From an uncultured Armatimonadetes bacterium (GTDB lineage: Bacteria; Armatimonadota; UBA5829; DTJY01): a stretch of 64,000 nt of DNA. Shown piece by piece: positions 26,014 through 52,245 of the stretch. The notes under the pieces were generated by a model. The model worked only from the letters and a program-made list of their open reading frames with translations. It did not search any database and was not told where the DNA came from. The stretch covers positions 416,001 to 480,000 of the forward strand of contig OY970325.1 of the NCBI GenBank assembly GCA_963717145.1, read 5' to 3'. How positions within the stretch are numbered: the stretch's first letter is position 1; the number at the start of each line of letters is the position of its first letter. The translations under genes were made by a program, and so were the position numbers.

Positions 26014-27085
26014 TGTCCAGTCTCATGACATTATGAACACCGTGGGTTGAAAAGAAGGAGGTGCATGCGGTAGTCTCTTTGATGATCGCCAAACCAAAAA
26101 AGGAGACCACTCGCATGCAGATCCATTCTAACGCAACCAGCAATATGAAGCAACGGCGGTTTTTCAGGCAGAGTCCCAAGAGCTGCAGAAAGCTCGCAGA
26201 TATCTGCCATGTATCGCCGGCAACAGTCTGCAAATGGAAGGCCCGGGGTGACCAGCAAGACCGCAGCAGTCGGCCCAGGAAGATCCATTATGCATTCAGC
26301 CCCGAAGAGGAGGAGATCATCCTCTCGCTCCGGGACAAAGGTCTAGCACTCGATGCACTGGTGCGTGCAGTAGTCACAGTTCTGCCGAATGCAGAACGCG
26401 CCAGTATACATCGCTTACTGAGCAGAAAAGGGGTGAGCAGACTCCCCCAGTACCAAAAAGAAAAGAGAGAAAGTCCAGGCAAGTTCAAAGAGTATCTGCC
26501 TGGATACCTTCACATAGACTGTTTCTACCTGCCCAAGATCGGGGGCAAGAGGAAGTATTGCTTCGTTGCGGTAGACAGAGCAACAAGGCTAGCCTTCCTC
26601 CAGGTGTACGACAACCTAACCAAGGAATCCGCAGTGGGCTTCCTTGGACTGTGCATGTGGTTCTATCCGTTCATGATCCACAAGATCCTGACAGACAACG
26701 GTAGAGAGTTCACTCTGGCCAATTGGAGCCGTTGGGGCAGTCCGGCGAAGAGACCTCACTTCTTTGATGAAGTATGCTCAGCCTGTGGTATTGAACACAG
26801 GCTCACCCGGCCGTATACACCAAAGACCAACGGTCTGGTGGAACGCATGAACGGACTGATCCAGGAGGGCACGTACAAGATGCACAGATATCCTGGATAT
26901 CCGGAGTTGATAGATGGACTCCACCAGTGGCTGACCATCTACAATCTAAGGAGACAGCACAGCGCGATCGGTGGCAAGACACCCTATGAGAAGGTCTGCG
27001 ACTGGTACGCGCAAAGACCAGATCTGTTTATCAAAGAGCCTACCGACTTACTGAACTACCGTTCACAACGTGGTGGGACTTGACA
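26014..27085 (+). mobile_element. IS481-family insertion sequence
   Basis: TGT...ACA ends with imperfect 25-bp IRs TGTCCAGTCTCATGACATTATGAAC / TGTCAAGTCCCACCACGTTGTGAAC; no clear target duplication. Confidence 0.88.
26115..27083 (+). CDS. IS481-family DDE transposase
   Basis: IHSNA start, HID, TDNGREF and TPKTNGLVER motifs. Confidence 0.92.
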   Translation: MQIHSNATSNMKQRRFFRQSPKSCRKLADICHVSPATVCKWKARGDQQDRSSRPRKIHYAFSPEEEEIILSLRDKGLALDALVRAVVTVLPNAERASIHRLLSRKGVSRLPQYQKEKRESPGKFKEYLPGYLHIDCFYLPKIGGKRKYCFVAVDRATRLAFLQVYDNLTKESAVGFLGLCMWFYPFMIHKILTDNGREFTLANWSRWGSPAKRPHFFDEVCSACGIEHRLTRPYTPKTNGLVERMNGLIQEGTYKMHRYPGYPELIDGLHQWLTIYNLRRQHSAIGGKTPYEKVCDWYAQRPDLFIKEPTDLLNYRSQRGGT

Positions 27086-27965: not shown

Positions 27966-28039
27966 TCCGGGGTCGTCCAACGGCAGGACACGGGCCTTTG
28001 GAGCCCGGTATTCAGGTTCGAATCCTGACCCCGGAGCCA
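27966..28039 (+). tRNA. tRNA-Gln(TTG)
   Basis: Acceptor stem TCCGGGG/CCCCGGA, anticodon arm CGGGC-CTTTGGA-GCCCG, GGTTCGAATCC, encoded CCA. Confidence 0.96.
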
Positions 28040-33724: not shown

Positions 33725-34575
33725 ACACGATCGACTTCCACTGCCACTACGGGAACTGGGGTGGGGGACCATACCCCAAGGGCTCGCAGAAGAAGATGCT
33801 CGACCTGCTCGCGAAGCACGATGTCCACATCGCGCTGATCACCCCTCTGAACAGCCTGTTCTCCGCCTGCCCGAACCCCACCCCAGCCCTCCCCGCTACG
33901 GGGAGGGAGCACGGCGGGCAACTCCCTCCCCGTAGCGGGGAGGGCTGGGGTGGGGTTCGGGACGCTGTCGCGCAGGAGAACGACCGGATCTTCGAGTTCT
34001 GCAGCCAGTCGCCCGATCGGCTCTTCCCCGCGATCGCCGTCAACCCGCTGGCGGGGAAGGCCGCGCTCGATGAGATACGTCGCTGCAAGACCGAGCACGA
34101 CGTGAAGGTGCTGAAGCTCCATCCCTGGCTTCAGGGATTCCCGATCGCGACGCCCGAGATGGATGCGGTCGCGGCCCTCTGCCAGAAGCTCGGGATCGCG
34201 ATCATGTTCCACGACGGCACGCCGATGTACACGCATCCCCTGCAGCTCGCCCGACTCTGCCGCGACTTCCCCGGGCTGACGGTGGTCTCCGGCCATGCGG
34301 GACTCAGCGACCTGTGGCGGGAGGCGATGCTGGCCGCTCAGAGGTATCCCAACTTCATCCTCTGCCTCTGCGGACCGCGCGAGGCCGGGATGCAGGAGAT
34401 CATCGACTCGGTCCCGCCCGAGCAGATATGCGTCGGCTCGGACTTCTTCGCTTCCAACGACGACGATTGCGTCATCTGGTTCCGCTGGGCGAGCTTCCGC
34501 GCGGTAGAGATGCCGGAAGAGACAAGGCGAATTATTGAGTATGAGACGCCTGCGAGGCTAATGGGCTTGGGCTGA
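33721..34575 (+). CDS. Amidohydrolase_2 family protein with an in-frame palindrome insertion
   Basis: DFHCH, KLHP, FHDG, GHAG and GSD motifs. Confidence 0.85.
   Translation: MNTIDFHCHYGNWGGGPYPKGSQKKMLDLLAKHDVHIALITPLNSLFSACPNPTPALPATGREHGGQLPPRSGEGWGGVRDAVAQENDRIFEFCSQSPDRLFPAIAVNPLAGKAALDEIRRCKTEHDVKVLKLHPWLQGFPIATPEMDAVAALCQKLGIAIMFHDGTPMYTHPLQLARLCRDFPGLTVVSGHAGLSDLWREAMLAAQRYPNFILCLCGPREAGMQEIIDSVPPEQICVGSDFFASNDDDCVIWFRWASFRAVEMPEETRRIIEYETPARLMGLG
33871..33960. repeat. 90-bp palindromic element inserted in frame
   Basis: CCGAACCCCACCCCAGCCCTCCCCGCTACGGGGAGGGAG and its inverse; encodes PNPTPALPATGREHGGQLPPRSGEGWGGVR. Confidence 0.85.
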
Positions 34576-34901: not shown

Positions 34902-35966
34902 ATGTCACAGATCAACATTGGTGTCATCGGCTACGGAATACGAAGCGGCGGACTGATCGGGGCGCTCGGCGCGTTCCCGTACGCCAACCTCGTCGCGATC
35001 GCCGACGTGAATCCCACGGCCAGAGGGAAGGCGGCAAAGGACCACCCCGGCGTCGCCGTGTTCGACGACTACCGGGCGATGCTCGACTCCGGCAAGGTCG
35101 AGGCCGTCATGGTGGAGTCGCCTCCCCACACCCACGCCGCGTGTGCCATCGAGGCGCTGAGTCGCGGCATCCACGTCCTGAGCGACGTGCCCGCCGTCCA
35201 CACCATCGAGGAGGACGACATGCTCTGGGCCGCCGGGCAGAGGAGCAAGGCGGTCTACTCCTTCGGCGCGACCACCAACTACTGGGCCTACGTCGACGCC
35301 TGCCTCGACATGAAGCGGAAGGGCCTGCTCGGCGATCCCTTCTACCTCGAGGCGGAGTACGTCGCGGACCTCGGCAACCTGCCCGAGATCACCCCCTGGC
35401 GCAAGCACTACGAGCCGATCCGCTACTGCACCCATTCGCTCGGACCGCTGCTGAAGTGGATCGATGAGGACCTCGCGGAGGTCTCCTGCTTCTCCACCGG
35501 CAGCCACATCCGCCACGACCCGAAGGAGGACGACGCCATGGTCGCCATCTTCCGCACGAAGTCGGGCGTCGTCGTCAAGCTGCTCACCTGCTTCGTCAAC
35601 AAGCACCCGATCCCATTCCACCGATACGTCTGCCACGGGACGAAGGGCTACTTCGAGAAGACCCAGCCGCTCCTTGGCGGAGAGTGCCAGGCCCTCTGGT
35701 CGACGGAGGCCGTCTACGGGATGCGCGGGCTGATGAACGTCCCGGTGACGGAGACGCGGCCCGAGCACGCGCACGATGTCGGGGTAGGGGGACACGGCGG
35801 CGCGGACGGGTTGATGGTCAAGGACTTCCTCGACTCGATCGCCGGCGACAAGCAGCCCGAGGTCAACATGCGCGAGGCCCTCCGCATGACCCTCCCCGGC
35901 CTCTTCGCCCTCCAGTCATCCCAGGCAGGGGGCGAGTTGACGAGGATATCCTATCCCTGGGAGTGA
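34902..35966 (+). CDS. Gfo/Idh/MocA oxidoreductase
   Basis: GVIGYG, HVLSDVP, YCTH and GGHGGAD motifs. Confidence 0.88.
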   Translation: MSQINIGVIGYGIRSGGLIGALGAFPYANLVAIADVNPTARGKAAKDHPGVAVFDDYRAMLDSGKVEAVMVESPPHTHAACAIEALSRGIHVLSDVPAVHTIEEDDMLWAAGQRSKAVYSFGATTNYWAYVDACLDMKRKGLLGDPFYLEAEYVADLGNLPEITPWRKHYEPIRYCTHSLGPLLKWIDEDLAEVSCFSTGSHIRHDPKEDDAMVAIFRTKSGVVVKLLTCFVNKHPIPFHRYVCHGTKGYFEKTQPLLGGECQALWSTEAVYGMRGLMNVPVTETRPEHAHDVGVGGHGGADGLMVKDFLDSIAGDKQPEVNMREALRMTLPGLFALQSSQAGGELTRISYPWE

Positions 35967-36050
35967 CCGCCGGGTCGTACCCCAACTCGTAATTGTACTC
36001 GTACACGGAACGACGGGCGTATTCGCAGAGAGACCGGGGGAGATACCATC

Positions 36051-36840
36051 TTGAGCAACGCAACGTTCATTGCATACGTAGATGAATCCGGCGACGAAGG
36101 ATTCAGGCAGGTTTCAGGCGCATCCCAGTGGTTTGTACTGTCCGCTGTTGTGCTGAAGCGCGCCAACGACCTGAGGGAATGCAAGTTGGTGGACGCCGTT
36201 AGAAGCGGGATCAATGCTCAGCGGCAGCCTGAACACCGCATGCCTCCGAGGAAACCTCTGCACTTCCGTGATCTCGGTCATGACCAGCGGAGGTTCTATT
36301 GCGATCATATCGGCCGAGCCGATCTCAGGACTATCTCCGTCCTGGTCAACAAACATGACATTGCATCCCCGGAGAACTTCACGGAGGAGTCGAGGCTCTA
36401 CTTCTACACAACCCGGCTACTGCTGGAGTGAATCTCCTGGTATTGCCGGGACCACAAGACTATCCACGATCTCGGAGATGGATCGGTGAAGGTGGTCTTC
36501 TCGAACAGGGCGACCATGAACTACAAAGCTCTGCAACAGTATCTGGAGTACCTCGATACGAACCGTGCGGCGCTCGGTTACCGGGCCGCACCGGAGATCA
36601 TCCGACCTGATCAGATATCATCCTTCACCGCTGGGAAACGAGATAGCCGACGCGGTTGCCTGCAGTTACTTCAAGGCAGTGGAGGCAAACGCCTTCGGCT
36701 TCACAGAGGAATCGTACGCAAAGTCTATCGTCGCCAGGGCATATAGACATAATGGCGAACTCTGGGGCTACGGTCTCAAGGTCATGCCCAGGGAGACTGA
36801 GGAGAAACGGCGTGCAGGAGGGATACTACAGGGCTGGTAG
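36051..36840 (+). pseudogene. DUF3800 domain protein, disrupted
   Basis: YVDESGD, LHFRD and IADAVA motifs; in-frame TGA at 36429-36431 and a frameshift near 36640. Confidence 0.8.
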
Positions 36841-36853
36841 CGGCTGAGGAGGC

Positions 36854-36945
36854 AAAAAAATAGCAGGTCCCGGGTCGTAGGATCCCACCGACCAGCGGCT
36901 GCCGCCCGTAAGGGCGACCTACGAGAGTCCCCGCGCATACCTGCA
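36854..36945 (-). ncRNA. Putative DUF3800-associated structured ncRNA, convergent to the gene
   Basis: Nested stems GCAGGT/ACCTGC, TCGTAGG/CCTACGA and CGCCC/GGGCG; U7 tail; own promoter. Confidence 0.7.
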
Positions 36946-36950
36946 TACAC

Positions 36951-36979
36951 ATTGTACCATTGCGTAACGCACTTTGCAA
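36951..36979 (-). promoter_or_regulatory. Sigma-70 promoter of the putative ncRNA
   Basis: TTGCAA-N17-TACAAT with extended TG; predicted TSS ~36944 at the 5' stem. Confidence 0.7.
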
Positions 36980-37007
36980 CACTTTTTGTAATCTTTTGCG
37001 TTACGAA

Positions 37008-37091
37008 CGCATGACGCTCCCCGGCCTCTTCGCCCTCCAGTCATCCCAGTCCGGCGGGCAGTTGACGAAGATCACCCATCCCTGGGAGTGA
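37008..37091 (+). repeat. Copy 2 of the oxidoreductase 3' end (35883-35966)
   Basis: 84 bp, RMTLPGLFALQSSQSGGQLTKITHPWE*. Confidence 0.9.
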
Positions 37092-37102
37092 CCCGTCGGC
37101 GG

Positions 37103-37131
37103 GTGACTTTGCGCAGACATTGAGGTATAAT
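37103..37131 (+). promoter_or_regulatory. Cassette promoter GTGACT-N17-TATAAT
   Basis: Shares ACATTGAGGTATAATG with 57011-57040. Confidence 0.65.
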
Positions 37132-37147
37132 GCCCGTGGAGGCTGAC

Positions 37148-37369
37148 ATGAAGCTCGACCGCATAACATTTCACCCCAATATCCTCGGCGGCAAGGCGTG
37201 CATCCGGGGAATGCGCATCTCCGCGTCCCTGGTGGTGAACCTCGTCGCGAACGGCATGACCCGCCCGGAGATACTCGAGGCCTATCCCGATCTCGAAGAC
37301 GAGGACATAACCCAGGCGCTCAAGTACGCCGCCTGGACTGCCGGCGATCTTGTGACCGAGGCGGCATAG
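37148..37369 (+). CDS. DUF433 antitoxin
   Basis: RI...P.ILGGKACIRG.RI, EILEAYPDL and EDI..ALKYAA motifs. Confidence 0.92.
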   Translation: MKLDRITFHPNILGGKACIRGMRISASLVVNLVANGMTRPEILEAYPDLEDEDITQALKYAAWTAGDLVTEAA

Positions 37370-37371
37370 TG

Positions 37372-37422
37372 ATGCCCTTGCGCTTCCTGGCAGACATGGG
37401 GATCTCCACGACGACCCGCTAG
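37372..37422 (+). pseudogene. Truncated DUF5615 PIN-like toxin
   Basis: LRFLADMGIS N-terminus, cut off at repeat copy 3. Confidence 0.7.
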
Positions 37423-37423
37423 T

Positions 37424-37547
37424 CCCTCCGCATGACGCTCCCCGGCCTCTTCGCCCACCGGTCATCGAAGGCAGGAGGAGAGCTGACGAAGATCACCTAT
37501 CCCTGGGAGTGACCGCCGGGTCGTACCCCAACTCGTAATCGTACTCG
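37424..37547 (+). repeat. Copy 3 of the oxidoreductase 3' end plus 35 bp of downstream flank
   Basis: LRMTLPGLFAHRSSKAGGELTKITYPWE* then CCGCCGGGTCGTACCCCAACTCGTAAT as at 35967-35993. Confidence 0.9.
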
Positions 37548-37688
37548 GAGCGATGGGGGTATCCTCGGGGGGGTTGCACTTCCTCCTGCGTGCCCGAACC
37601 CAAGCAGGAAAGCATCCTCTCAGTATATAATCCATATAAGAGCAAGGAACACAGATGCGAGTTACCCCACCGCCCAGAGGAGCCGCTC

Positions 37689-39980
37689 ATGCCAATACTG
37701 ACCGAACAGGAACAGCAGGAAGTCATCCGCTACATCGAGGCCGGGAAGCCCCTGCCGGATAAGTACCGCTTCCTGCTGTTCGAGGAGAAGCGCGAGGTCG
37801 AACTCGTCTGGAACGGGAAGACCGGCGAGGTTACCAACGTTGTCCTGCCGTTTCAGGTGATCGAGCAGGTAGATGAACCCCGCGCTGAGAAGCCGGAGGA
37901 TACCTCCCTCCAACTCGGCATGTTCGACACTCGCGGTCGGCAGAAGAAGGGCTGGACCAACAAGCTTATCTGGGGCGACAACAAGCTGATCCTCTCCAGC
38001 CTGAAGAACGGTCCCCTGCGCGAGGAGATCGAGAAGCAGGGCGGACTCAAGCTGATCTACATCGACCCGCCGTTCGACGTAGGCGCGGACTTCTCGATGG
38101 ATATCGAGATCGGCGGCGACACCTTCACCAAGAAGCCGAACATCCTGGAGGAGATCGCCTACCGTGATACTTGGGGCAAGGGCGCGGATTCCTTCATCGC
38201 CATGATCTATGAGCGGCTCATGCTCATGCGCGATCTCTTGGCGGACGATGGAAGCATCTACGTGCACTGCGATTGGCGAGTGAATAGTCACATGAGATTT
38301 GTGCTCGATGAGATATTTGGGACAGATACCCAGATAAACGAGCTTATCTGGCAACGATCGAACCCTCACAACGATACAAAGCGGTATGGATGCATTCATG
38401 ACACCATCTTTGTGTATTCCAGGAGTGCGGATTACATCTTCCAGACTCAGTTCACTCCTCCTTCGGAGTCATACATCCGGAGTCACTTCACCCAAGAAGA
38501 CGAAGCTGGGCGGAAGTATACGCTCATGCCTCTGATGGCTAGTGGATCCGGACCAGCAAGACGTTTTGGAGACAAGACGTTGACTCCGCCTCCGGGGACT
38601 CACTGGCGATGGACGCAAGAGCGAATCGACGATGCTATGAACAACGGCATCATTGTTTTCACGAGTGGCGGCACTCCAAGATACAAATTCTATGCGGATC
38701 AGTCTAAGGGAAGGCCCCTGCAGTCAGTATGGAGTGATCTAGTTCCTATCAACTCCCAATCGGCAGAAAGATTGGACTACCCCACGCAGAAACCGGAAAC
38801 TCTGCTGGATCGGATCATCAGAGCATCGTCCAACGAGGGCGATCTTGTGGCCGACTTCTTCTGCGGGTCCGGCACTACCGCCGCTGTTGCCGAAAAGCTC
38901 GGGCGGAAGTGGATCGTCACCGACCTCGGCAAGTTCGCCATCCACACGACCCGTAAGCGGATGATCGGCGTTCAGCGCGAACTCAAGAAGGATGGCAAGG
39001 ACTACCGGGCGTTCGAAATCCTCAACCTCGGCAAGTACGAGCGCCAGCACTACATCGGCGTGAACCCCAACCTGCGTGAGGCCGAGCAGCAGAAGCAACT
39101 GGAGGAGAAGGAAGCCGCCTTCCTCGACCTGATTCTCCGCGCCTACCGCGCTGAGAAGATCGACGGATTCAACACCTTCCACGGCAAGAAGGCCGGGCGG
39201 CTCGTGGCGGTCGGCCCGGTGAACCTTCCCGTGACCCGCCTCTTCGTCGAAGAGGTCATCCTGGAGTGCCGCCAGAAGCACATCACCCGCGTGGACATCC
39301 TCAGCTTCGAGTTCGAGATGGGACTCTTCCCGAATGTCCTGGATGAGGCCCGCGCGAAGGGGATAGACATCGCCCCGAAGTATATCCCCGCCGAGGTATT
39401 CGACAAGCGCGCCGTCGAGAAGAACCAGGTCGTGTTCCATGACGTCTCCTTCATCGAAGTTACACCCCATGTGAAGGGAAACACTGTCGCGGTGGAACTG
39501 ACTGATTTCTCCGTGTTCTACTCCCAGGACTCCATCGCCAACGCAGAGGCGACGATCAAGGACAAGAGCAGCAGGATCGTGGTCGAGAAGGGGCAGATCG
39601 TCAAGGTAAGCAAGGACAAGGACGGCATCGTCACCCGCGAAGTCCTCACCAAGGAATGGACCGACTGGATTGACTACTGGGCGGTGGACTTCCAGTTCGA
39701 GAGCAAGCGGGAGATCATCCGCCGAAAGCTGATACCGGCGGAACAGGAGTCGCTCGACGGACTCGAACCGCCGCAGATGGACCTGGCGCAATACGAGGAA
39801 GTCTGGACCGGCGACTACATCTTCGAGAACGAGTGGCAGTCGTTCCGCACGAAGAAGGACCGATCACTGGAACTGACGAGCGTCTACCACGAGTGCACGA
39901 AGGGACGGCGGAAGGTGGCAGTCAAGGTCGTAGATATCTTCGGCAACGACACGATGACGATTGTGGAAGTCAGCGTCTAG
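37689..39980 (+). CDS. mod: Type III R-M adenine methyltransferase (Mod)
   Basis: IYIDPPF, YPTQKPE and DFFCGSGTT motifs (beta order). Confidence 0.88.
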   Translation: MPILTEQEQQEVIRYIEAGKPLPDKYRFLLFEEKREVELVWNGKTGEVTNVVLPFQVIEQVDEPRAEKPEDTSLQLGMFDTRGRQKKGWTNKLIWGDNKLILSSLKNGPLREEIEKQGGLKLIYIDPPFDVGADFSMDIEIGGDTFTKKPNILEEIAYRDTWGKGADSFIAMIYERLMLMRDLLADDGSIYVHCDWRVNSHMRFVLDEIFGTDTQINELIWQRSNPHNDTKRYGCIHDTIFVYSRSADYIFQTQFTPPSESYIRSHFTQEDEAGRKYTLMPLMASGSGPARRFGDKTLTPPPGTHWRWTQERIDDAMNNGIIVFTSGGTPRYKFYADQSKGRPLQSVWSDLVPINSQSAERLDYPTQKPETLLDRIIRASSNEGDLVADFFCGSGTTAAVAEKLGRKWIVTDLGKFAIHTTRKRMIGVQRELKKDGKDYRAFEILNLGKYERQHYIGVNPNLREAEQQKQLEEKEAAFLDLILRAYRAEKIDGFNTFHGKKAGRLVAVGPVNLPVTRLFVEEVILECRQKHITRVDILSFEFEMGLFPNVLDEARAKGIDIAPKYIPAEVFDKRAVEKNQVVFHDVSFIEVTPHVKGNTVAVELTDFSVFYSQDSIANAEATIKDKSSRIVVEKGQIVKVSKDKDGIVTREVLTKEWTDWIDYWAVDFQFESKREIIRRKLIPAEQESLDGLEPPQMDLAQYEEVWTGDYIFENEWQSFRTKKDRSLELTSVYHECTKGRRKVAVKVVDIFGNDTMTIVEVSV

Positions 39981-40000
39981 ACCCCTCGAATTCGAGGGGT
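39981..40000. repeat. Perfect 20-bp palindrome after mod
   Basis: ACCCCTCGAATTCGAGGGGT. Confidence 0.7.
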
Positions 40001-40063
40001 TTGGAATGGACAGAAGACCATGTTGCTGATGTCAGCACAATGGTCGAGTAGAGGGAGGGGCGC

Positions 40064-40878
40064 GTGGCGGAGAAGATACAGGTTCAAGGAACAGAGATAA
40101 CGGTCATATCGCATCCACAGGGGGACTACATATCCCTGACGGATATGTTGAAGGCGAAAGACGGCGATTTCTTCATCTCGGACTGGTTGAGGAATCGCAA
40201 CACGGTCGAGTTTCTTGGCATCTGGGAGAGCGTCCACAACCCGAACTTCAATTATGGCGAATTCGCCGCAATTAGAAGTCAGGCAGGCCTTAACAGCTAC
40301 AAGATCAGCGTCAAGGAGTGGGTTAGCAGGACGCATGCCATAGGCCTGAAAGCAACCGCCGGAAGATATGGAGGCACCTACGCCCACAGGGATATCGCCT
40401 TTGAATTCGGCATGTGGATCAGTCCGGAATTCAAGATCTACCTGATCAAGGAGTTCCAACGGCTCAAGGACCAGGAGTTCAAGCAACTCGGATGGGACAT
40501 CCGCCGCAATCTCGTCAAGATCAACTACCGGATTCACACCGATGCCATCAAAGGGAATTTGATCCCGCCGGAACTCACCCGGCGGCAGATGGACTTGATA
40601 TACGCCTCCGAGGCGGATGTCCTGAACATGGCGCTCTTCGGTATGACGGCCAAGAAGTGGAGGGACAGCCATCCCGGCGAGAAGGGTAATATCCGAGACT
40701 ACGCGAACGTCTCGCAGCTTGTATGCCTCTCCAATCTCGAGAACCTGAACGCCCTCTTCATCAATGAGAAGATCCTCAGCCGGAACGGCTTCGCAAGTTG
40801 AACCAAATCGCGATTCAGCAGATGAAGATCCTATCGGAAGACTTCGGGATCAGGCAACTGGAGGCGGGGGACAAGTAA
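40064..40878 (+). CDS. KilA-N domain protein, frameshifted near 40770
   Basis: DYISLTD, WLRNRNT.EFLG.WE, GRYGGTYAH.DIAFEF; C-terminus ERLRKLNQIAIQQM in another frame, stop overlaps the res ATG. Confidence 0.85.
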
Positions 40879-43547
40879 TGGCTCTGCACAAGGACTTTCC
40901 GGAATCACCTCACGCGATACTCGATCCGGCGATCCGCTGGTTCCCGGCAGACGAAGCTCTGCGCGAGAGCAGCATGGACAAGCTGCTGCCTCCTCTCGTC
41001 CCGGAACTTCGGAAGAAGGTGAAGGCCTGGAGAGAGAGCGGCTACGACAAGGCTACGGAGACAAGCCGCTCTTTGCTCAACTGGTGGTTCAAGACGCCGC
41101 ACCTTCTGCCCAAGTCCGACGGCACGATGGCCGAGTTCCAGTACTACTTCGCCCAGCGGGAAGCGCTGGAGACGATCATCTTTCTCTACGATGTTGTCGG
41201 AGTCAAAGACAAGTACGACATGATGCGCTTCGACGGCTCCGGCTTCGTATCCACCGGCATGTTCGACGAGGACTGGCGGCGCTTTGTCGTCAAGATGGCA
41301 ACCGGGGCGGGGAAGACCAAAGTGTTGAGCCTGGTCTTGGCGTGGAGCTTCTACCATAAGCTCTACGAGCCGGAGTCGGAACTGGCACGCAACTTCCTGG
41401 TGATCGCTCCAAATATCATAGTCCTCGATCGCATCTACAAGGACTTCAAGGGCCTGCGCATCTTCTTTGAGGATCCGGTGATACCGGATAACGGCATTGA
41501 CGGTCGCAACTGGCGTGATGACTTCCAGCTTACTCTGCACCTGCAGGACGATGTCCGCATCACTCATCCCACAGGTAACATATTCCTGACGAACATCCAT
41601 CGGGTCTATGCCGGTGATGACATTCCCCCTTCGCCCGAAGATGACAACACGATGGACTTCTTCCTGGGAAAGCGTCCGAGCGGCGCAACCACCGATTCCA
41701 AGGTCGATCTCGGGATGATCGTGCGGGATATCGATGAACTCGTTGTACTTAACGATGAGGCTCACCATATCCACGATCCGCGCATGGCCTGGTTCAAGTC
41801 CATTCAGGATATCCACAACCGCCTCAAGCAGAAGGGGGATGTGCTATCACTTCAGGTGGATGTCACCGCTACCCCAAGACACAACGATGGTGGGATCTTC
41901 GTGCAAACGGTCGCCGACTACCCCCTTGTCGAGGCGATCTGCCAGAACGTAGTCAAGCATCCTGTCCTTCCCGATGCACCGAGTCGTGCGAAGCTGCAGG
42001 AACGGCAGAGCCCCAGGTACACGGAGAAGTATGCCGACTACATAAACCTGGGCGTGACGGAATGGCGCAAGGCATATACCGAGCATGAGAAGATGGGCAA
42101 GAAGGCGATCCTGTTCGTCATGACCGACGACACCAAGAACTGCGATGATGTCGCGAAGTACCTGGAAGACACCTATGCCGATTTGAAAGGCGCAGTGCTG
42201 GTGATCCACACCAAAGACAATGGCGAGATCTCGGAGAGGAAGAAAGAGGACCTCGAAGTACTGCGCAAGCAGGCTAACGATATTGATGGAGAAGACAGTC
42301 CCTTTAAAGCCATCATCTCGGTTATGATGCTCAAAGAAGGATGGGACGTGCGCAATGTCACTACCATAGTCGGACTTCGGCCATACTCGGCGAAGAGCAA
42401 CATCCTCCCGGAGCAGACTCTTGGGAGGGGACTACGCCGCATGTATCCGGAGCAGTCCGTTCCCGAATTGGTTAGCGTCGTGGGTACGGACGCATTCATG
42501 GATTTCGTCGAGTCGATCCAGGCGGAAGGCGTCGTGCTCGAACGCCGGGCAATGGGCCAGGACACGGGCGCCATCACTCCCCTGGTCATCGAAGTGGACC
42601 AGGACAACGTGAAGAAGGATATCGATCAACTGGATATCGAGATTCCCGTGCTGAGTCCGCGAGTCTACCGTGAGTACAAGAACCTGAGCCAGCTAGATGA
42701 GACTGCCCTGGGTCATACCAAAGTGACCTACCGGCAGTTCAGCGAAGAGGAACAGCGGGAGATAGTCTTCCGGGACATCACGACCGGCGAGATCACACAC
42801 ACCACCATTCTCGATACGGCGGGCGTCGCGGACTATCGAAGCGTCATCGGCTACTTCGCTCAGACCATCATGAAGGACTTGCGCCTCGTCAGCGGCTATG
42901 ACGTTCTCTACGGCAAGGTCAAGGCCTTTGCTCAGGACCAGTTGTTTGACCAGCCGGTGGACCTTGAGACTCCGAACACCCTTCGCAACCTCTCCGAAGT
43001 ACCTGCGACGCGGACGCTGATCGAAACCTTCAAGAAGGCGATCAACGAGTTGACTATCCAGCAGAAAGGCGACGCTGAGATCAGGGATCACATCAAGTTG
43101 CGGGAGACTCGTCCCTTCGTGGTGAAGGAACAGGGGTACCTGATTCCGAGGAAGAGCATCTTCAACAAGATCATAGGCGACAGCGGCCTCGAACTCCTAT
43201 TCGCGGGTTTCCTGGACGACTGCGAAGACATCATCTCCTACGCCAAGAACTACCTGGCTGTGCGCTTCAAGCTGGACTATGTGAACGCCAACGGCGACAT
43301 CTCCAACTACTATCCCGATTTCCTGGTCAAGGCATCGGACCGCGAGGTCTTCATCGTGGAGACGAAGGGCCAGGAAGACCTCGATGTCCCGCTCAAGATG
43401 GAGCGGCTCAGGCAGTGGTGCGCGGATATCAACCATATCCAATCGGATGTTGTCTACGGTTACGTTTACGTTGACGAGGAAGGCTTCGAGAAGTATCGGC
43501 CCACGTCATTCCGGCAGCTGGTTGATGCGTTCCACGAGTACAAGTAG
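40878..43547 (+). CDS. res: Type III R-M restriction subunit (Res; helicase plus PD-(D/E)xK nuclease)
   Basis: MATGAGKT, NDEAHH, TATP, EGWD, GRGLR and YPDF..VETKG motifs. Confidence 0.9.
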   Translation: MALHKDFPESPHAILDPAIRWFPADEALRESSMDKLLPPLVPELRKKVKAWRESGYDKATETSRSLLNWWFKTPHLLPKSDGTMAEFQYYFAQREALETIIFLYDVVGVKDKYDMMRFDGSGFVSTGMFDEDWRRFVVKMATGAGKTKVLSLVLAWSFYHKLYEPESELARNFLVIAPNIIVLDRIYKDFKGLRIFFEDPVIPDNGIDGRNWRDDFQLTLHLQDDVRITHPTGNIFLTNIHRVYAGDDIPPSPEDDNTMDFFLGKRPSGATTDSKVDLGMIVRDIDELVVLNDEAHHIHDPRMAWFKSIQDIHNRLKQKGDVLSLQVDVTATPRHNDGGIFVQTVADYPLVEAICQNVVKHPVLPDAPSRAKLQERQSPRYTEKYADYINLGVTEWRKAYTEHEKMGKKAILFVMTDDTKNCDDVAKYLEDTYADLKGAVLVIHTKDNGEISERKKEDLEVLRKQANDIDGEDSPFKAIISVMMLKEGWDVRNVTTIVGLRPYSAKSNILPEQTLGRGLRRMYPEQSVPELVSVVGTDAFMDFVESIQAEGVVLERRAMGQDTGAITPLVIEVDQDNVKKDIDQLDIEIPVLSPRVYREYKNLSQLDETALGHTKVTYRQFSEEEQREIVFRDITTGEITHTTILDTAGVADYRSVIGYFAQTIMKDLRLVSGYDVLYGKVKAFAQDQLFDQPVDLETPNTLRNLSEVPATRTLIETFKKAINELTIQQKGDAEIRDHIKLRETRPFVVKEQGYLIPRKSIFNKIIGDSGLELLFAGFLDDCEDIISYAKNYLAVRFKLDYVNANGDISNYYPDFLVKASDREVFIVETKGQEDLDVPLKMERLRQWCADINHIQSDVVYGYVYVDEEGFEKYRPTSFRQLVDAFHEYK

Positions 43548-43591
43548 CCGACGTCGGATCGCCTCCCGGAGTCCAAGTCGGGCCTCAGGTG

Positions 43592-43915
43592 TATAGAAGT
43601 ATGACCTCCCGCTGTCAGCCGGAGACGATACTTCCATCGAAGTATGACCTCCGGGAGTCAGCCGGAGACGACTTGTCTATAGAAGTATGACCACCGGGAG
43701 TCAGCCGGAGACGATACTTCTATGGAAGTATGACCACCGGGAGTCAGCCGGAGACGACTTGTCAATAGAAGTATGACCACCGGGAGCTAGCCGGAGACGA
43801 CTTGTCTATAGAAGAATGACCACCGGGAGTCAGCCGGAGACGATACTTCTATGGAAGTATGACCACCGGGAGTCAGCCGGAGACGATACTTCTATGGAAG
43901 TATGACCACCGGGAG
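43592..43915. repeat. 43-bp tandem repeat array (~7.5 units), each unit imperfectly palindromic
   Basis: Units start at 43596, 43639, 43682, 43725, 43768, 43811, 43854 and 43897; consensus GAAGTATGACCACCGGGAGTCAGCCGGAGACGATACTTCTATG. Confidence 0.95.
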
Positions 43916-44108
43916 ACGGCATCTGCTCATCATTCCCCCGCACGGACTGCTGCCCTCGGCAGCCCTCCGATCTGATCTTCGCCCCTTGTTCTCCTCTCGG
44001 CAAATGATATTGTCACAAGTTTCACTAAAGCTCCCATTGTCATGACCCGACAATTGAATCGGCGGCTAATCTGTACCACAAGCCGCCGGGTTTTTGACCG
44101 ATCTGTGG

Positions 44109-44236
44109 GAAACCTCGCCAACCCTTCGTGTGGGAGTATGGGAGTGTGAGAGTGTGGGAGCATGGGAGTATGGGAGTGCGGGCGATCCGCGCTCCCACAC
44201 GCCCAGACTCCCACACGAAGGGTTTGGGGACGTCTC
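44109..44236. repeat. GGGAGTRT octamer palindromic element
   Basis: aacccttcgtgtgggag(tatgggag)n...ctcccacacgaagggtt. Confidence 0.75.
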
Positions 44237-44273
44237 CGGGGCGGCTCGGTCACTTGAATGGAGGAAACTAGTT

Positions 44274-44951
44274 ATGGGTGATTGGATCCCCACTAAGGAC
44301 CTGGAACTCCAGGTATGGATGGACACGTTCCTGACCTACCTGAGCACGAATCTGGCGCACTTCGGGCTGGTGGCGGCGGATGTCCTCGATCTGACGGCTG
44401 CCTCGCCGGAGTTCAGCCAGGCGAGGGTTGCGGCGGAAGATGCCCGAATCGTGTATAAGGGCCTGGTTTCGGATAAGGGCGCCAAGCGCGATGCTCTCGT
44501 GGACCTGCTCAGGCCGATGGTCGCGCGGCTCCAGACCTTCCCCGCTACGACGAACCAGGACCGCGATTCGCTCGGGATTCCGAGACGCGGCGGGACATCC
44601 GCTGTCCCGCAGGCCATCGAACTGCTCCCGGACAGGCCGGTCGCAGGTATAAACATCGGCACGATCCGGAGGCATACGCTCCGCATCCAGAACGACATCG
44701 ATGGTACCATCACATCGGGCAAGCCCGAGGGCGTGAAAGCGGTCGAGGTCTGGGTGAAGGTCGGGGAAGCGCCGACGGGAGAGCCAGAGACGGACATGCG
44801 GTATGTGAACATGTCGACCAAGAATACGCTGGCGGTGGCGTTCGCGCCGGAGGATGGAAACAAGCAGGCGCATTACAAGATGCGCTGGATCTATAACGGC
44901 GGTCAGAAGGGCGGCTGGTCCGAGCTCCAGAGCGCGACGATCGCGGCCTAG
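44274..44951 (+). CDS. Hypothetical protein: helical N-domain plus FN3-like C-domain
   Basis: GGAGG RBS; WIP..D start, amphipathic helices, LGI, KPEGV...EVW and Y..RW...G..G.WS. Confidence 0.75.
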   Translation: MGDWIPTKDLELQVWMDTFLTYLSTNLAHFGLVAADVLDLTAASPEFSQARVAAEDARIVYKGLVSDKGAKRDALVDLLRPMVARLQTFPATTNQDRDSLGIPRRGGTSAVPQAIELLPDRPVAGINIGTIRRHTLRIQNDIDGTITSGKPEGVKAVEVWVKVGEAPTGEPETDMRYVNMSTKNTLAVAFAPEDGNKQAHYKMRWIYNGGQKGGWSELQSATIAA

Positions 44952-44955
44952 GGGA

Positions 44956-45105
44956 ATGGTTGATGGTTGATGCCGGAGACCGGATGCCGGACGCCGGACA
45001 TGGCTGATGGCTGATGGTTGATGGCTGATGCCGGAGACCGGATACCGGAAATGGTTGATGGTTGATGGCTGATGGTTGATGCCGGAGACCGGATGCCGGA
45101 TGCCA
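44956..45105. repeat. Higher-order heptamer repeat [(ATGGYTG)n(ANRCCGG)n]x3
   Basis: Strict 7-bp periodicity with 2-nt joints. Confidence 0.85.
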
Positions 45106-45146
45106 GGGGATTCTCTATGAGGAATCCAGGAATGCAGGAAGTGATC

Positions 45147-45176
45147 GGGGCGGGGGATGATTCCCCCGCCCCTTTT
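45147..45176 (+). terminator. Intrinsic terminator
   Basis: GGGGCGGGGGA/TCCCCCGCCCC stem followed by TTTT. Confidence 0.75.
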
Positions 45177-45236
45177 CGTCAGTCGATGGAGGTCGACTTC
45201 GTGCCTTGCCCAGGGTCGATTTCGATTCGTGCGGGC

Positions 45237-46830
45237 TCAGAAGCTGAAGTTGGCCGATGCTGCCAGGAACGTGCCCTGTCTTTGTACGGATACTGTCTTG
45301 ATCTCAGAGGCCGTCGTCGTATCTCCAACAGATACGCCGTTGAGCCTTTCCACCTTTCCGACAGCCAATCCGTACGTAAGGAACACCCGCGTCCTTCCCG
45401 TGCGGTGCGTTCCTCCGATCACAGCGGTGACTCCCAGCAGATATCGGACAGGATCTTTGGCGACCACTCCGAAGGTAATAGCAGGTGTGACAGATTGGTC
45501 TTTCAGGCAGTAGAAATGAGCCAAGGCAGCAGCCCCTATGTCAAGTCTGTCTGATGCACCCTCCTGGATGACCGTGGTAAAGTCGGTGGGCGGGTTCTTC
45601 GGCCCGACGATATAGTTGCGCTTCTTCAAGTTGGTGCCAGCCAGTCCGAGGCTGTAGTCGAGAATCCAGCGCCCGTAGACCGGGATAGTCTCTTCCGCCC
45701 GAGATGGCTTCGTGCCGCTGGTATCGGCTGTGGAGGCGTCCTTTGTAGCCGAATCCCCGCCGCCGCCTGCCTTCGGAGTCTCGGGGGCGCTCTCTTCACC
45801 TCCGGCCGTCTTTTCCTTCACCTGGACGACGATCTTCAGTTCATCCTTTGTCGGGGTGCACGGGTAATCTTTGTAGGCAGGGCTGTCCATAATCGCGATG
45901 AACATGTCCCGTGCTTTCCCAAGTCTGAGCTTGATCTCACTCAGATCGTTCCGAACTCCCGTTCGCTGTTCGTTGGCAATTGCGAGCAACTGATTGACCT
46001 GGGCGTCAGCGCCTGCAAGATACTTCAGGAGTTGCTCCGCGTTGGCCGGTGGCGTTCCAGAAGAGGGGTCCAGGGTCGCGACGATCCCCGCATAAGACGT
46101 CTTCCATCCATTGTAGGCCTTTCGAAGATCTTGGTAGTCCTTTTCGAGCTTACGAAGCGCGATGTTTGCCGGCTTTGGTATATCCTCTGCCCAATCACGC
46201 AGTCCCTGAACGTCTGCGGAAGAGTAGTCGTTCTCGTATGGGCCGGGCCCCCAGTGCAGAGACGTTGGAAATCCAGTGTTGATGCCATCAACATTCTTCA
46301 GAAACTCGGCCGCTTTGTATCTCATCTGCGGGTTCGTGTCCGCCGACTTGACTTGCTTTGCCAGATCGTAATCCAGCGTTGCAGCTCTTTCGAGTTTCGG
46401 CGAGACGACGGCTTTTAGCATGAAGAGGGTGAACGCTTTTGTGAAATCCTCTAGTGGCGTGGTCCCTCCTATCAACTGCAAGGCTTGGACTGTCGCTGCG
46501 GGCACCTCTTATCGGAATCGTAACAGACTTCGATTTCAGTATGAAGTCCTCGAGCGGTTTCGGCATCGTAGCCGTATGGTAATCAGTCTCCGTCATCGTG
46601 ACTGCGTAGTCATTTCGGAGGGTGTTCCATCTGATCACCCGCAATACGACCGGAGAGTCGCATTGGAGCTGGCGTACGCCACCGCTCACTTCTTGTTTGC
46701 CATTGTCCCATGTGTCGCCGAACGTCATAGTCTTCGCGTCGAAGTAGATCATCCTCTCTCCCGCTGCCCAGGCCGAGGCCGAGCAGACGAGCGCGAGTAG
46801 TAGCAGAGCCAGTCCCAGCGTTTTGTACAT
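45237..46830 (-). CDS. Secreted, probable outer-membrane protein, frameshifted near 46505
   Basis: Signal peptide after GGAGG; helical middle; alternating beta strands ending ANFSF. Confidence 0.65.
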
Positions 46831-46990
46831 GAAGTACCTCCTGTAATGTATTTGCAGACAGGCCGCCTGACTGCGTGCTCGGTAGGCTACGAGCAGCAGA
46901 CCATGCCGGCTTGCCCCCAAGATGCTTATCCGAGGGCATATGGCACGGTCGTCTGTAGTGCTACAGGTCAGTCGTTCTGAAAGTGTTAGA

Positions 46991-47019
46991 ATAATAACGT
47001 CATCTTATCGACCTGTCAA
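46991..47019 (-). promoter_or_regulatory. Sigma-70 promoter
   Basis: TTGACA-N17-TATTAT. Confidence 0.65.
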
Positions 47020-47188
47020 GCAGTTTTTTGGCATCAAGAGAAGACTGGAACGCGTGTGCGGCAAATGCTTTCTGCGTCTCCGGGCTCAGGGCGGGGAGCT
47101 GGTCAATAGCACTCCGGAAGGCATTCCTGTGGAATGGGGTAGCTGTACTTCAAGCTCTTGCTTTTCTAAGGGTGTTGGTGCAACCCTG

Positions 47189-47218
47189 GCCCTCCGTGCC
47201 TCGGGCGGCACGGAGGGC
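47189..47218. terminator. Hairpin ending the paralogue array
   Basis: 12-bp stem GCCCTCCGTGCC/GGCACGGAGGGC; no T tract. Confidence 0.5.
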
Positions 47219-47237
47219 ACGCAGAGAAGCTCGGGAG

Positions 47238-48069
47238 CTATATCAGAGGGGGCAACGCGAGCGCGCCGCTGACGTGATAGATGCTCCTCCGCGCGTAATC
47301 GTAGACATCGATATTGACCTTGAAATCTATGATGTAACCGTCCCGGAAGGGAAACACGATCTCGCACATCCGGGTCACCGGCTCGGAGTTGCCGATCGTG
47401 AACTCGCAGTACCCGGTGATGCGAATATCGACGCCGCTCCTCGCAGACGTCAAGTACCGTTCGTAGGCTTGTCGGAACTCCCTCATGCGAATCCGGACCG
47501 CGCCTCCGGGATTGTCGGGATCCAGGAGCAGGAACTGCTCGGGGCCTTCATCCGGAAAATACATGTAGGAGTAGGGCGAGCCGAGCCTGAAGTCGACCAT
47601 CCCCATGACGGGATAGTACATCGCGAAGGTTGCATTACGGCTCTGAGTCCGGCTCGGTCCCCGGATTGGCAATACCGACGCGATGTTGAGTCCTGGCTGT
47701 TCCCTGGAGGGCGACACTGTGATGGCGACGGGCTTGGATGTGATCCCGGCAAGGATTCCGCCGTCCGCGCCGAACGCCTGGACCTCATAGGCTCACCGGC
47801 GGGAGGTTGACCCTCAGGCAAGCGCGGCCGGCGCCATCGGTCTGAGCGAGACTGACCGAGGGCGTTCTCGTTGTGTTCGAGAGATCGAGGGCTCTGAACC
47901 AGACGGTCTCGCCGGCGAGCGGCTGGTTCATGTCGCCGAGGGCATCGGCGCAGAGGCGGACGTTGCCGGAGTACATCAGCAGATCGCTGGTGTAGGTGAG
48001 AGTGGCTGCGGTTGCCGGCATGGTGATGCAGAGACCGGCGACCAGTAACATATAAAGCTTGAACTTCAT
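47238..48069 (-). CDS. Secreted paralogue A (frameshift near 47795)
   Basis: Signal peptide; LTY..DL, CLRVNL, EQFLLLDPD.PGG.VRIR, GYCEF and DYARRSIY motifs. Confidence 0.75.
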
Positions 48070-48101
48070 TTCAGTGTCCTCCTTGCGATATGACCTTTGC
48101 T

Positions 48102-48131
48102 GATGCTTCGGCAGTCTGGTGACGAAGCATC
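48102..48131. promoter_or_regulatory. Conserved leader hairpin GATGCTTCG...CGAAGCATC (gene A)
   Basis: Also present upstream of paralogues C and D. Confidence 0.65.
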
Positions 48132-48159
48132 GTCAATACTCAACACCCAACATCCCGCG

Positions 48160-48964
48160 CTACAGGTACCAGTACCAGTACACCTTATCCGGCCAGCCGC
48201 CTGCGTGGTAGATAGTCCTCCGAGCGAAGTCCAGGACATCGACCTGGAATCCCAGGGTGTAGCCGTAATACGCCACGTGGCAGGTCGCCCTCACCGGCGC
48301 GGAGTTGCCGGCCTTGAACTCGCAGTACCCGATGAAGTGGCAGTCGTAGACCGGCGGCGGCGCAAATCGATACCGCAGGTAGGCCTGATGGAATCCCTGT
48401 ATGCGGATGCGTACGGGCCCGCCGGGGGCATCGGGATCCAGGAAGAGAAACTGCTGGTTGCGCGTCCTGGTGAAGTACATGTAGGAGTACGGCTCGGCGT
48501 CGATGTTGGTGGGATCTCCGTAGAACTCCAGGTAGAGCCCGAAGGTTGCGATCCTCGTGGAAGACTGTCCCCGCTCCTTGAGCGGCAGCTCTGCCCGACC
48601 ACGCCATGAGGTCCCCGCGGGTGGGATCCATCACGGTGAGCGCCACTGGGTCGGACGCAACCCCCATGCCAGAGGCCTGGAACTCATAGACCCCCGGCTG
48701 GAGGTTGGCTCTCAGGCATGCATACGCGCCGTTCGGCTGCCCGTAGCTCATGGGCGCGAGCCTGTTGATGTTGTAGACATCCACTGCGCTGAACAGGAAC
48801 GGCTCGCCGGTTATGGGGACGCCCATGTCATCGAGGCCCTGGACGCACAGCGGGACGCCGGCGTTCTGCTCAAAGAACAGGTCGCCGGTGTATGAGAGAC
48901 TGGATGCGGCTGCCGGTGTCGAGATACAGACGGCGAGCAGTAGCACGTAGAGCAGGGATTTCAT
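48160..48964 (-). CDS. Secreted paralogue B (frameshift near 48600)
   Basis: Same motifs split over two frames. Confidence 0.72.
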
Positions 48965-49016
48965 CTGCGTATCCTCCTTTGGTCGGATGGGTTATTGGCT
49001 GCCTGTAAACGGCGTT

Positions 49017-52244: not shown

Positions 52245-52245
52245 T

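Follow-up and report, generated by a model that had tools for sequence, protein, structure and literature searches.

The window, which is the whole 64,000-nt stretch of DNA analysed here, contains at 34902-35966 a 354-aa gene of the GFO/IDH/MocA family of oxidoreductases (Pfam PF01408 and PF22725), with weak NCBIfam matches to sugar and inositol dehydrogenases. Its 3' end is a repeated unit; the gene, the copies c1-c3 and the cargo of the array described below lie on the forward strand unless stated otherwise. The initial annotation had reported that the last 84 nt of the gene (35883-35966) recur at 37008-37091 and 37429-37512, and this proved true: both are direct copies, with identities of 87-89%. 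The gene-linked copy, c1 (35871-36001), comprises these 84 coding nucleotides and about 35 nt of native post-stop sequence, which is similar to what follows the orthologs and L025b, an orphan gene end on a metagenome contig. The orphan c2 (37008-37093), delimited by repeat search and alignments, is identical to c1 at 78 of 85 aligned positions, and its similarity stops 2-3 nt past the stop codon. The orphan c3 (37417-37547) reaches 12 nt further into the gene at its left end than c2 does, followed by the 84 nt and 35 nt of c1-like post-stop sequence; c1 and c3 are identical at 117 of the 131 positions.

The copies differ from one another at 10-11 of the 84 positions. They keep the reading frame without indels within the 84 nt, and their translated tails are those written down earlier. 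These tails had been called diverged and mostly conservative. The divergence was borne out, whereas conservation received weak support, from only a mild third-position excess: the substitutions between c1 and c3 were distributed 3/3/5 over the codon positions, with 6 synonymous and 5 changed codons, too few to decide on selection. The orphan tails of 27 residues showed 4-6 residue differences, which is within natural allelic variation, and the proposed role of the copies as alternative C-termini found no support.

The cargo had been described as DUF3800 with an RNA, DUF433-DUF5615 and type III R-M, and this order stands, although the DUF3800 gene turned out to be a pseudogene and "DUF5615" a stump of 16 codons. 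The spacings between the copies are 421 and 1125 nt. The DUF3800 pseudogene (36051-36840; Pfam PF12686) has an in-frame TGA at 36429-36431, found by family search, and an 11-nt deletion after 36643, judged by alignment to a distant copy. It is followed on the reverse strand by a full-length DUF3800-VII RNA motif (36857-36945; Rfam RF02967, 85.3 bits against a gathering score of 36.2). Behind c2 lies a gene for a DUF433 protein of 79 aa (37130-37369; Pfam PF04255, E 2e-23), an antitoxin-like partner of DUF5615, and then the probable DUF5615 stump (37372-37422), severed where c3 begins. The name of the stump, which is too short for Pfam, relies on its place behind DUF433 and on the few residues of its RFL.D start, as compared with the N-termini of two intact DUF5615 genes. 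The remainder of the DUF5615 gene is absent from the window; in the genome (G000), family search finds DUF5615 only at 352579 and 2808388 and, weakly, at 1555934.

The R-M system follows c3. It consists of the type III methyltransferase gene mod (37590-39980; Pfam PF01555; PADLOC MTase_III, E 6e-115), a gene for a KilA-N domain protein (40064-40801; Pfam PF04383; PADLOC candidate defence gene PDC-S22, E 5.9e-120) and the restriction subunit gene res (40764-43547; Pfam ResIII; PADLOC REase_III). Directly behind res, TRF identified a tandem array with a 43-nt unit present in 7.5 copies (43592-43915). A genome search found no later copy of the gene end that closes mod and res. PADLOC and NCBIfam returned no match for the ORFs at 44094-53343, for DUF3800 or for DUF433.

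A search of the whole 5.37-Mb genome listed 22 matches to the gene end at E<=10, four of which were strong: c1, c3, c2 and a fourth copy, c4 (E 3e-63 to 3e-25; the next best match had E 0.6). c4 lies at G000:1795683-1795794, 1.34 Mb away, where the same DUF3800/RNA/gene-end seam stands before a type I R-M system and Mrr. The left junction of c2 with the DUF3800/RNA segment is common to c4, and the 43-nt array behind res also closes the c4 island, according to genome BLAST and a pattern count. The distant segment begins partway through DUF3800, and a melibiase-family gene precedes it by about 25 nt. The gene order around this melibiase gene is not kept in the related genomes G001 and G006, and the island edges could not be set there. 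The first 48 nt of c4 are c2-like (2 differences, versus 9 to c3), and its last 36 nt are c3-like (1 difference, versus 4 to c2), as is the part after the stop codon. On these 16 variable sites, c4 looks like a mosaic, a recombinant of two other copies, which agrees with the earlier suggestion that the copies may recombine with each other. The flank differs at 15 of 542 positions and the orphan at 6 of 84, a borderline difference (Fisher p 0.05).

The array is absent from relatives. Orthologs of the oxidoreductase with 76-79% aa identity occur in G001, G006 and G007, each with a single copy of the gene end at its locus. G001 and G006, which represent two related genera, lack about 18.6 kb at this site. 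According to tblastn of the relatives' ORFs against G000, the first gene that again adjoins the oxidoreductase in both is that at 54585-57014, which marks the far edge of the absent segment; the region to the right of c3 (37548-54585) is likewise missing from them, which places the orphan in the interior of the additional DNA.

Variable cargo across strains had also been predicted, and a metagenomic relative provides an example. The 1320-nt contig L025 of a close relative carries the gene end (L025a), a membrane-protein ORF, an orphan (L025b) and then an EcoRV-family nuclease; its gene end is thus also duplicated, but around cargo unlike that seen here. P0122, a full-length allele with 90% aa identity, has an end identical to the orphan L025b. 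Over 76 nt, c1 and c3 differ at 11 positions, c1 and L025a at 7, c3 and L025a at 8, and all of them from G001 at about 15. Judged by these sequences, the copies have diverged from one another to the degree seen between alleles from different organisms. Two soil contigs of 5.0 and 5.8 kb are about 93% identical to the gene up to 35964 and thereafter unlike the 2.7 kb compared (35400-38100). Three sequencing runs, the only ones found, contain 5-6% of the words, all as contigs, and represent relatives instead of this organism; across 35400-38100 they show no joint between copies, with 36128-37128 uncovered, a result that does not bear on excision. A second metagenome match, L024, was rejected because it reflects chance similarity over 24 nt within a DUF1501 gene. 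The search for related loci returned only two MAGs, one of them labelled Armatimonadota, and a pattern scan of genome contigs found nothing.

The breakpoint is not as constant as had been thought. The copies were said to start at nearly the same point, but c2 and c4 start at CGCATGAC, whereas c3 starts about 12 nt earlier. The left boundaries correspond to 35883 for c2 and c4 (one event), about 35871 for c3 and about 35861 for L025b, with offsets of 12 and 22 nt; they are near one another without being identical.

Further duplicated gene 3' ends had been anticipated in the genome, and we found five loci (A-E) of the same architecture, bringing the total to six loci with six different target genes; the five others carry non-R-M cargo. 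This count leaves out the ambiguous pairs 72025/74037, 3018471/3019521 and 4761333/4762007, together with one 5'-end candidate (1193098/1193696), as judged by the ORF map. The repeat at G000 3338004/3348062/3443571 was rejected as a gene-end repeat and is a palindromic REP/MITE-like element. The orphans are 84-191 nt long with identities of 80-93%. At loci A-E the similarity stops within about 15 nt of the stop codon, and in c1, c3 and c4 it runs another 25-35 nt into the native post-stop sequence; both are expected if the sequence beyond is strain-specific. Length differences of 1 nt and stop codons occur in the orphans of loci C, D and E. At locus A, the HEPN gene near the target gene is also present in G009 at the same place, and the next 270-nt block is also present in G006, G001 and G009, with the orphan and DUF7225 beyond. 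At locus D, the orphan is followed by a 372-aa gene and further DNA. Since the proximal genes at locus A are common to relatives and the orphan lies beyond them, the orphan seems to travel at the head of incoming distal DNA. The idea that each incoming module supplies a new 3' end and displaces its predecessor is conjectural. For the target gene of locus B, no ortholog at E<=1e-60 was present in 10 family genomes, hence no empty site was found. PADLOC gave no match among the scanned ORFs of loci A, B, D and E.

The array had been called integron-like, with a shared breakpoint motif to be looked for. Genome-wide family searches agreed with the statement that the window lacks an integrase: neither tyrosine (PF00589) nor serine (PF00239) recombinases were found in the window or at the five other loci. 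Genome-wide, PF00589 gave 3 hits (G000 935441, 2213149 and 2568136), each of them more than 400 kb from the window, and PF00239 gave 7, which likewise fall outside the window and the five similar loci. The tyrosine-recombinase locus at 2.21 Mb showed no tRNA and no informative repeats, and the 1320-nt contig L025 carries no integrase. An rve-type transposase is encoded at 26061-27083 in the window. Folding of the 66-71 nt to the left of c2 and c3 as DNA revealed no recurrent hairpin at the junctions (c2, -9.1 kcal/mol, z -1.5, 19 of 200 shuffles as good; c3, -8.1 kcal/mol, z +0.7), and an Rfam scan of the window at gathering thresholds returned only tRNA and DUF3800-VII. No breakpoint motif is shared across the six loci. 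With no integrase, no recurrent hairpin, no common motif, no constant breakpoint and genes that are cut, the integron-like interpretation was abandoned. An accretion array at a variable-cargo site was nevertheless upheld.

We consider it most likely that related strains repeatedly supplied the imported DNA, that the copies are the scars of these events and that no novel type of integron is involved. To the specific explanation that we favour we assign an even chance: recombinase-free accretion at a hotspot of variable cargo, where homology-facilitated illegitimate recombination acts on one side and leaves short gene-end fragments as scars. The site behind the oxidoreductase would be a hotspot where related strains carry differing cargo, such as R-M systems, TA pairs and DUF3800. 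DNA from a foreign strain would recombine homologously on one side, in the common downstream flank, and the other side of the incoming fragment would reach only about 85-190 nt into the gene. Because a crossover would require a longer and less diverged stretch, the end of the fragment would be joined illegitimately into the resident cargo. The cargo would stack, the gene piece of each fragment would remain as an orphan at each seam, and resident genes would be severed at the joint, with no dedicated recombinase required. Genes are cut at two junctions, as seen in the DUF5615 stump at c3 and in the halved DUF3800 gene near c4. Later, the orphans could act as portable homology, so that recombination between copies would delete or reshuffle cargo, and whole pieces could land elsewhere in the genome.

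The copies, their divergence, the cut genes, the lack of recombinases, the insertion as compared with related genera, the differing cargo of a close relative and the other loci are direct observations; the recombination mechanism, the direction of stacking and uptake by transformation are inferred. ComEC and DprA are present, but they also match 10-11 of 14 control genomes, and their presence therefore does not establish competence. Against the one-sided reading, the three independent left boundaries share an interval of 22 nt, which we estimate would occur by chance about 3 times in 100 for random ends within 200 nt and which hints at a preferred site. In addition, the empty-site relatives belong to other genera (76-79% aa identity), so several unrelated indels could mimic an orphan in the middle. 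For this array the opposite direction is also possible by analogy, with the anchor in the gene and the newcomer beside it, as proposed for Rhs/T6SS arrays. More tentatively, the orphan ends may be portable homology handles, through which host recombination alone would stack, delete, exchange and move defence and TA cargo.

TA and R-M modules are the parts likeliest to survive decay, owing to post-segregational killing. This would suit a tandem accretion of site-specific integrative elements, each with the gene 3' end in its attP so that integration restores the gene, that have decayed to CIME-type remnants with nothing but their addictive TA and R-M modules left, or that were served by an integrase in trans. 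Direct repeats of the 3' end of an intact target gene with similarity stopping near the stop codon, the classic att layout of islands in tRNA and protein genes as treated for CIMEs and accretion in PMC5704250 and for ssrA islands in PMC3146451, are in line with such elements, as are the three independent left boundaries within 22 nt. Nonetheless, we regard this possibility as rather doubtful. There is no integrase in the array or at the five other loci, the three tyrosine-recombinase hits being all more than 400 kb away, and the six target genes have no common core. The boundaries are offset by 12 and 22 nt instead of identical, although the extent of attP homology can vary between elements; the junctions cut genes, the rightmost copy is not followed by the relatives' flank, and the units, at spacings of 421 and 1125 nt, are very small. 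An insertion of the Campbell or long-target-duplication type, in which circular or other DNA that carries or duplicates a 90-150 nt piece of the target enters by one crossover, so that the piece flanks the insert on both sides, would explain why c1 (35871-36001) and c3 (37417-37547) have equal extents, as would two ends of one event, and a crossover inside the repeat fits the mosaic c4. In PMC2853133, R-M units of types I-IV have target duplications of 30 to about 400 bp without mobility genes, by a mechanism described as unknown. However, the published repeats there match one another and the empty site almost perfectly (e.g. 45/46 and 417/423), whereas 10-11 of 84 positions differ here, and c1 and c3 are each closer to the copy of another organism than to one another. 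The R-M systems also lie outside the repeats, part of the inter-copy DNA at locus A is common to relatives, and a transfer route for circular double-stranded DNA is not evident. We judge this insertion unlikely.

That the copies are in frame, free of indels and endowed with plausible tails would be expected of a switching system, in which silent cassettes are swapped into the gene in the style of shufflons or antigenic variation. We hold this to be highly improbable: an 84-nt stretch with about 10 substitutions is often indel-free by chance, the differences at 4-6 of the 27 residues stay within natural allelic variation, no invertase or recombinase was found, and the orphans at loci C, D and E contain 1-nt length differences and stop codons. 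An assembly artefact or chance similarity can scarcely be credited, given within-genome E-values of 3e-25 to 3e-44, a divergence (10-11 of 84) unlike that of a collapsed or duplicated assembly repeat, and the same kind of duplication on an independent metagenome contig (L025).

The pattern bears on how defence islands grow at hotspots without mobility genes. If the orphan ends are scars of one-sided recombination, they would provide a searchable signature in any genome that counts and dates imports, and a testable mechanism by which defence, R-M and TA genes accumulate additively, not by replacement. Six loci with the pattern are present in this genome from the little-studied phylum Armatimonadota. 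Should the portable-handle reading be true, it would amount to a recombinase-free system of cassettes, perhaps widespread, through which defence islands arise behind ordinary genes without any integrase or transposase, and the c4 seam before the type I R-M and Mrr island would be one such move. If the copies are instead decayed att sites, this would be an ordinary accretion array.

Insertion of R-M units with long target duplication was reportedly described by Nobusato in 2000. Long target duplication of R-M units, as treated by Furuta, Abe and Kobayashi 2010 (PMC2853133), resembles our case in that repeats of more than 30 bp match a single copy in insert-free genomes, no mobility genes are present, defence genes occupy the site, the repeats often overlap a gene 3' end and the mechanism is unknown. 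In our array, by contrast, the repeats are 87-89% alike, while the published ones are near-identical, and stand three in a row; the R-M system comes after the last repeat, with TA-type and DUF3800 cargo between the repeats; and the same pattern occurs at five other loci with non-R-M cargo. Tandem accretion with CIMEs at a gene 3' end, as PMC5704250 describes for ICESt1/fda of Streptococcus thermophilus, and the ssrA islands of Dehalococcoides (PMC3146451) likewise have a string of target 3'-end copies with cargo, an intact gene and remnants without integration genes. Our array differs from both in its lack of a nearby integrase, its inconstant boundaries, its cut genes, its units of 0.4-1.1 kb and a last copy that does not abut the conserved flank.

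Rhs, CDI and T6SS arrays share with our locus the orphan 3' ends downstream of a constant gene, each with its own following genes. C-terminal displacement arrays of Rhs/CDI toxins are said to have been described by Jackson in 2009 and Poole in 2011. For T6SS effector-immunity arrays, homology-facilitated illegitimate recombination has been proposed by authors who noted a comparison with integrons and rejected it, there being no integrase (Kirchberger 2017, PMC5361080). In these systems the orphan ends encode distinct toxin domains with cognate immunity genes, which supplies a selective logic. The orphans of our locus, by contrast, encode 27-residue tails from a metabolic enzyme, between which no functional difference is evident, and their cargo has no relation to the gene. 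As in integron arrays, small and mostly promoterless cargo, TA cassettes included, stands behind a fixed point. Unlike an integron, the array lacks intI, shows neither attI nor attC-like hairpins where its units join, repeats a fragment of a host gene and follows a pattern that recurs behind six different genes.

In the single-contig genome of 5.37 Mb that contains the window (G000), the final 84 nt of a GFO/IDH/MocA oxidoreductase gene (34902-35966) form a repeated unit. The initial annotation had claimed that this gene end recurs nearby with its reading frame kept, and both points were borne out. Besides the gene-linked copy (c1), there are orphan copies, i.e. gene ends without their gene, at 37008-37093 (c2; 78/85 identity to c1) and 37429-37512 (c3); the 84 nt are free of indels, and the translated tails agree with the earlier reading. 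The similarity between c1 and c3 is longer, reaching another 12 nt upstream in the gene and 35 nt past the stop codon (35871-36001 against 37417-37547, 117/131 identical). Genome-wide, the gene end gave 22 matches at E<=10: four were strong (c1, c3, c2 and a distant copy, c4, at G000:1795683-1795794; E 3e-63 to 3e-25), and all the others had E>=0.6.

Downstream of c1 lies a dead DUF3800 gene, with an in-frame TGA (36429-36431) and an 11-nt deletion after 36643, scored relative to the distant copy at the c4 locus. A full-length DUF3800-VII RNA motif follows on the minus strand (36857-36945, 85 bits); the relevant passages of Weinberg 2017 (PMC5737381) assign no function to RNAs of the DUF3800 type. 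The gene and the full RNA occur together twice in G000 (window 36051-36945 and G000 1795105-1795680), in a shared segment diverged by ~2-3%. The RNA is conserved at both places and the gene is intact at neither, carrying a stop and a frameshift at one and lacking its 5' half at the other; G000 gave no DUF3800 match besides these two. Behind c2 come a DUF433 gene and a 16-codon stump ending at the start of c3, probably the remnant of a DUF5615 gene, the rest of which is absent from the region. After c3 stands a type III R-M system comprising mod, a KilA-N protein and res; the KilA-N domain gene between mod and res (40064-40801) matches PADLOC PDC-S22, a candidate defence family (E 5.9e-120). 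Next comes a 43-nt tandem array (43592-43915).

The window segment 36466-37093, which spans the second half of DUF3800, the RNA and c2, matches G000 1795130-1795768, 1.34 Mb away, at 95.5%. The distant segment begins ~25 nt downstream of a melibiase-family gene. Behind it, post-stop sequence gives way to a type I R-M system plus a nuclease of the Mrr type, and this island ends in the same 43-nt array as the type III island. The first 48 nt of c4 differ from c2 at 2 positions and from c3 at 9, while the last 36 nt differ from c3 at 1 and from c2 at 4, and the post-stop part is also c3-like. Given this c2-like start and c3-like end, c4 looks like a crossover product of c2-type and c3-type copies, with few sites behind that reading. 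Arrays of the 43-nt repeat, all on the plus strand and with each unit bounded by a 7-nt inverted repeat, occur at three G000 loci: in the window (~7 units, immediately downstream of the type III R-M system), at G000 1805357-1805672 (6-7 units, downstream of the type I R-M and Mrr island headed by c4) and at G000 546484-546997 (11-12 units, next to an RHS-repeat gene). They may give moving islands a common right-hand homology.

Several other features surround the array. An rve-type (DDE) transposase gene (26061-27083) lies near a tRNA gene (27966-28036) ~8 kb upstream, and no connection between this pair and the array was seen. A perfect inverted repeat at 33870-33961, inside the amidohydrolase region, has 40-nt arms set 12 nt apart; its G+C-rich palindromic motif seems to be present elsewhere too, e.g. 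in the ORFs preceding the melibiase gene end in L003. A short octamer-repeat tract (44128-44216) and the 285-aa ORF next to it (44298-45035) are part of a family that is present dozens of times, in partial form, across the genome; Pfam, NCBIfam and PADLOC gave no match for the ORF.

On the initial reading, the cargo behind the gene would vary across relatives. Among 41 genomes including G000, 11 contained oxidoreductase matches at E<=1e-30, four of them close orthologs (G001 79%, G007 78%, G006 76% and G013 58% amino acid identity). G001, G006 and G007 carry one gene-end copy per locus, and in G001 and G006, members of related genera, the gene directly adjoins the ortholog of window 54585-57014, so that ~18.6 kb of G000 is missing there; in G007 and G013 the neighbours of the gene differ. 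The DNA missing from relatives includes minus-strand tandem paralogs of 259-291 aa (47224-48000 vs 49904-50675 and 49051-49748; no family match) and a degraded fourth copy. A scan of metagenome contigs for the gene end yielded two matches, one rejected as chance similarity. The other, L025 (1320 nt, 87-92% identity to c1), contains a gene end (L025a), a 188-aa membrane ORF on the opposite strand, an orphan (L025b) starting ~22 nt further upstream in the gene, post-stop sequence and an EcoRV-family nuclease gene. In contigs from soil (5.0 and 5.8 kb), the gene is matched at ~93% up to 35964, beyond which their sequence is unlike the 2.7 kb compared. With other cargo on L025, these contigs indicate a site that is variable among close relatives.

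After filtering, self-comparison of G000 retained 179 pairs of direct repeats lying near each other, among which 13 rows, or 11 distinct pairs, joined a gene 3' end to a downstream orphan. Six pairs were accepted (the window array and loci A-E), three were ambiguous, and two were rejected: a palindromic element that is not a gene-end repeat, and a paralog cluster. The palindromic element, REP/MITE-like and ~65 nt long, is present in at least three copies (G000 3338004-3338068, 3348062-3348126 and 3443571-3443637) and had initially resembled a gene-end repeat. The opposite arrangement, in which an orphan lies upstream of a gene whose 5' end it repeats, was seen in three rows, one of them a candidate. 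The copies enclose HEPN and a 694-aa ORF at locus A (G000 365889-371338; purQ, 87-nt orphan), DUF2589 at locus B (G000 488979-495189; GH31, 145 nt), a gap of only ~440 nt at locus C (G000 674496-678722; GH42-like, 113 nt), a MazF/PemK pair at locus D (G000 2795179-2797208; 329-aa gene, 191 nt) and an Exo_endo_phos protein at locus E (G000 2938671-2941427; GHL10, 154 nt). At all five, the left boundary is sharp and similarity stops within ~15 nt of the stop codon. The purQ-proximal genes of locus A are common to relatives at that place, with the orphan and DUF7225 farther out; further foreign DNA lies beyond the last orphan at locus D and in the window array.

The genome-wide search that the initial annotation had suggested thus turned up similar loci, but no breakpoint motif is common to them, and a constant breakpoint was not borne out: the left boundaries of independent orphans of the oxidoreductase gene are offset by 12 and 22 nt. 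None of the six loci holds a recombinase, the only such matches in G000 (3 tyrosine-recombinase and 7 resolvase-family) all lying away from them; nor was a recurrent hairpin found at the junctions, two of which cut genes. Together, these findings speak against site-specific machinery dedicated to the array. The observation behind the proposal of integron-like cassette accretion is confirmed and its interpretation partly supported; the integron comparison fails, integrase and attC both being wanting.

We give roughly even chances to the array being the scars of recombinase-free accretion. In the simplest account, diverged strains would have recombined on one side only at a variable site. A homologous crossover would take place in the far flank common to both strains, and the near end of the incoming DNA, extending only 85-190 nt into the gene, would be joined illegitimately into resident cargo. 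One-sided recombination would explain why the orphans are limited in length and diverged, why similarity stops at the stop codon or up to ~35 nt past it, why genes are cut and why the stacking is additive; the clustering of three boundaries within 22 nt is left unexplained by it. Decayed integrase elements, the main rival, seem rather unlikely. Duplication of the target in place is argued against by the copies being as distant from each other as from those of another organism (over 76 nt, 11 differences for c1-c3, 7 for c1-L025a and 8 for c3-L025a), and by a full-length allele of the oxidoreductase (P0122, 90% amino acid identity) whose end exactly matches the orphan L025b. Stacking in the opposite direction, a model put forward for Rhs and T6SS arrays in the pertinent part of PMC5361080, is possible.

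The array resembles three described systems and fits none of them fully; in the limited literature sample searched, no description of this pattern was found in which the gene is an ordinary metabolic one and the cargo consists of TA and defence modules. R-M units with long target duplications, as presented in sections of PMC2853133, share the lack of mobility genes, but there the R-M unit sits between repeats that are almost identical. CIME-type accretion likewise occurs at gene 3' ends, but requires an integrase and fixed att sites according to the corresponding passages of PMC5704250. The third system, the C-terminal displacement array of polymorphic toxins, has orphan ends that function as toxin domains.
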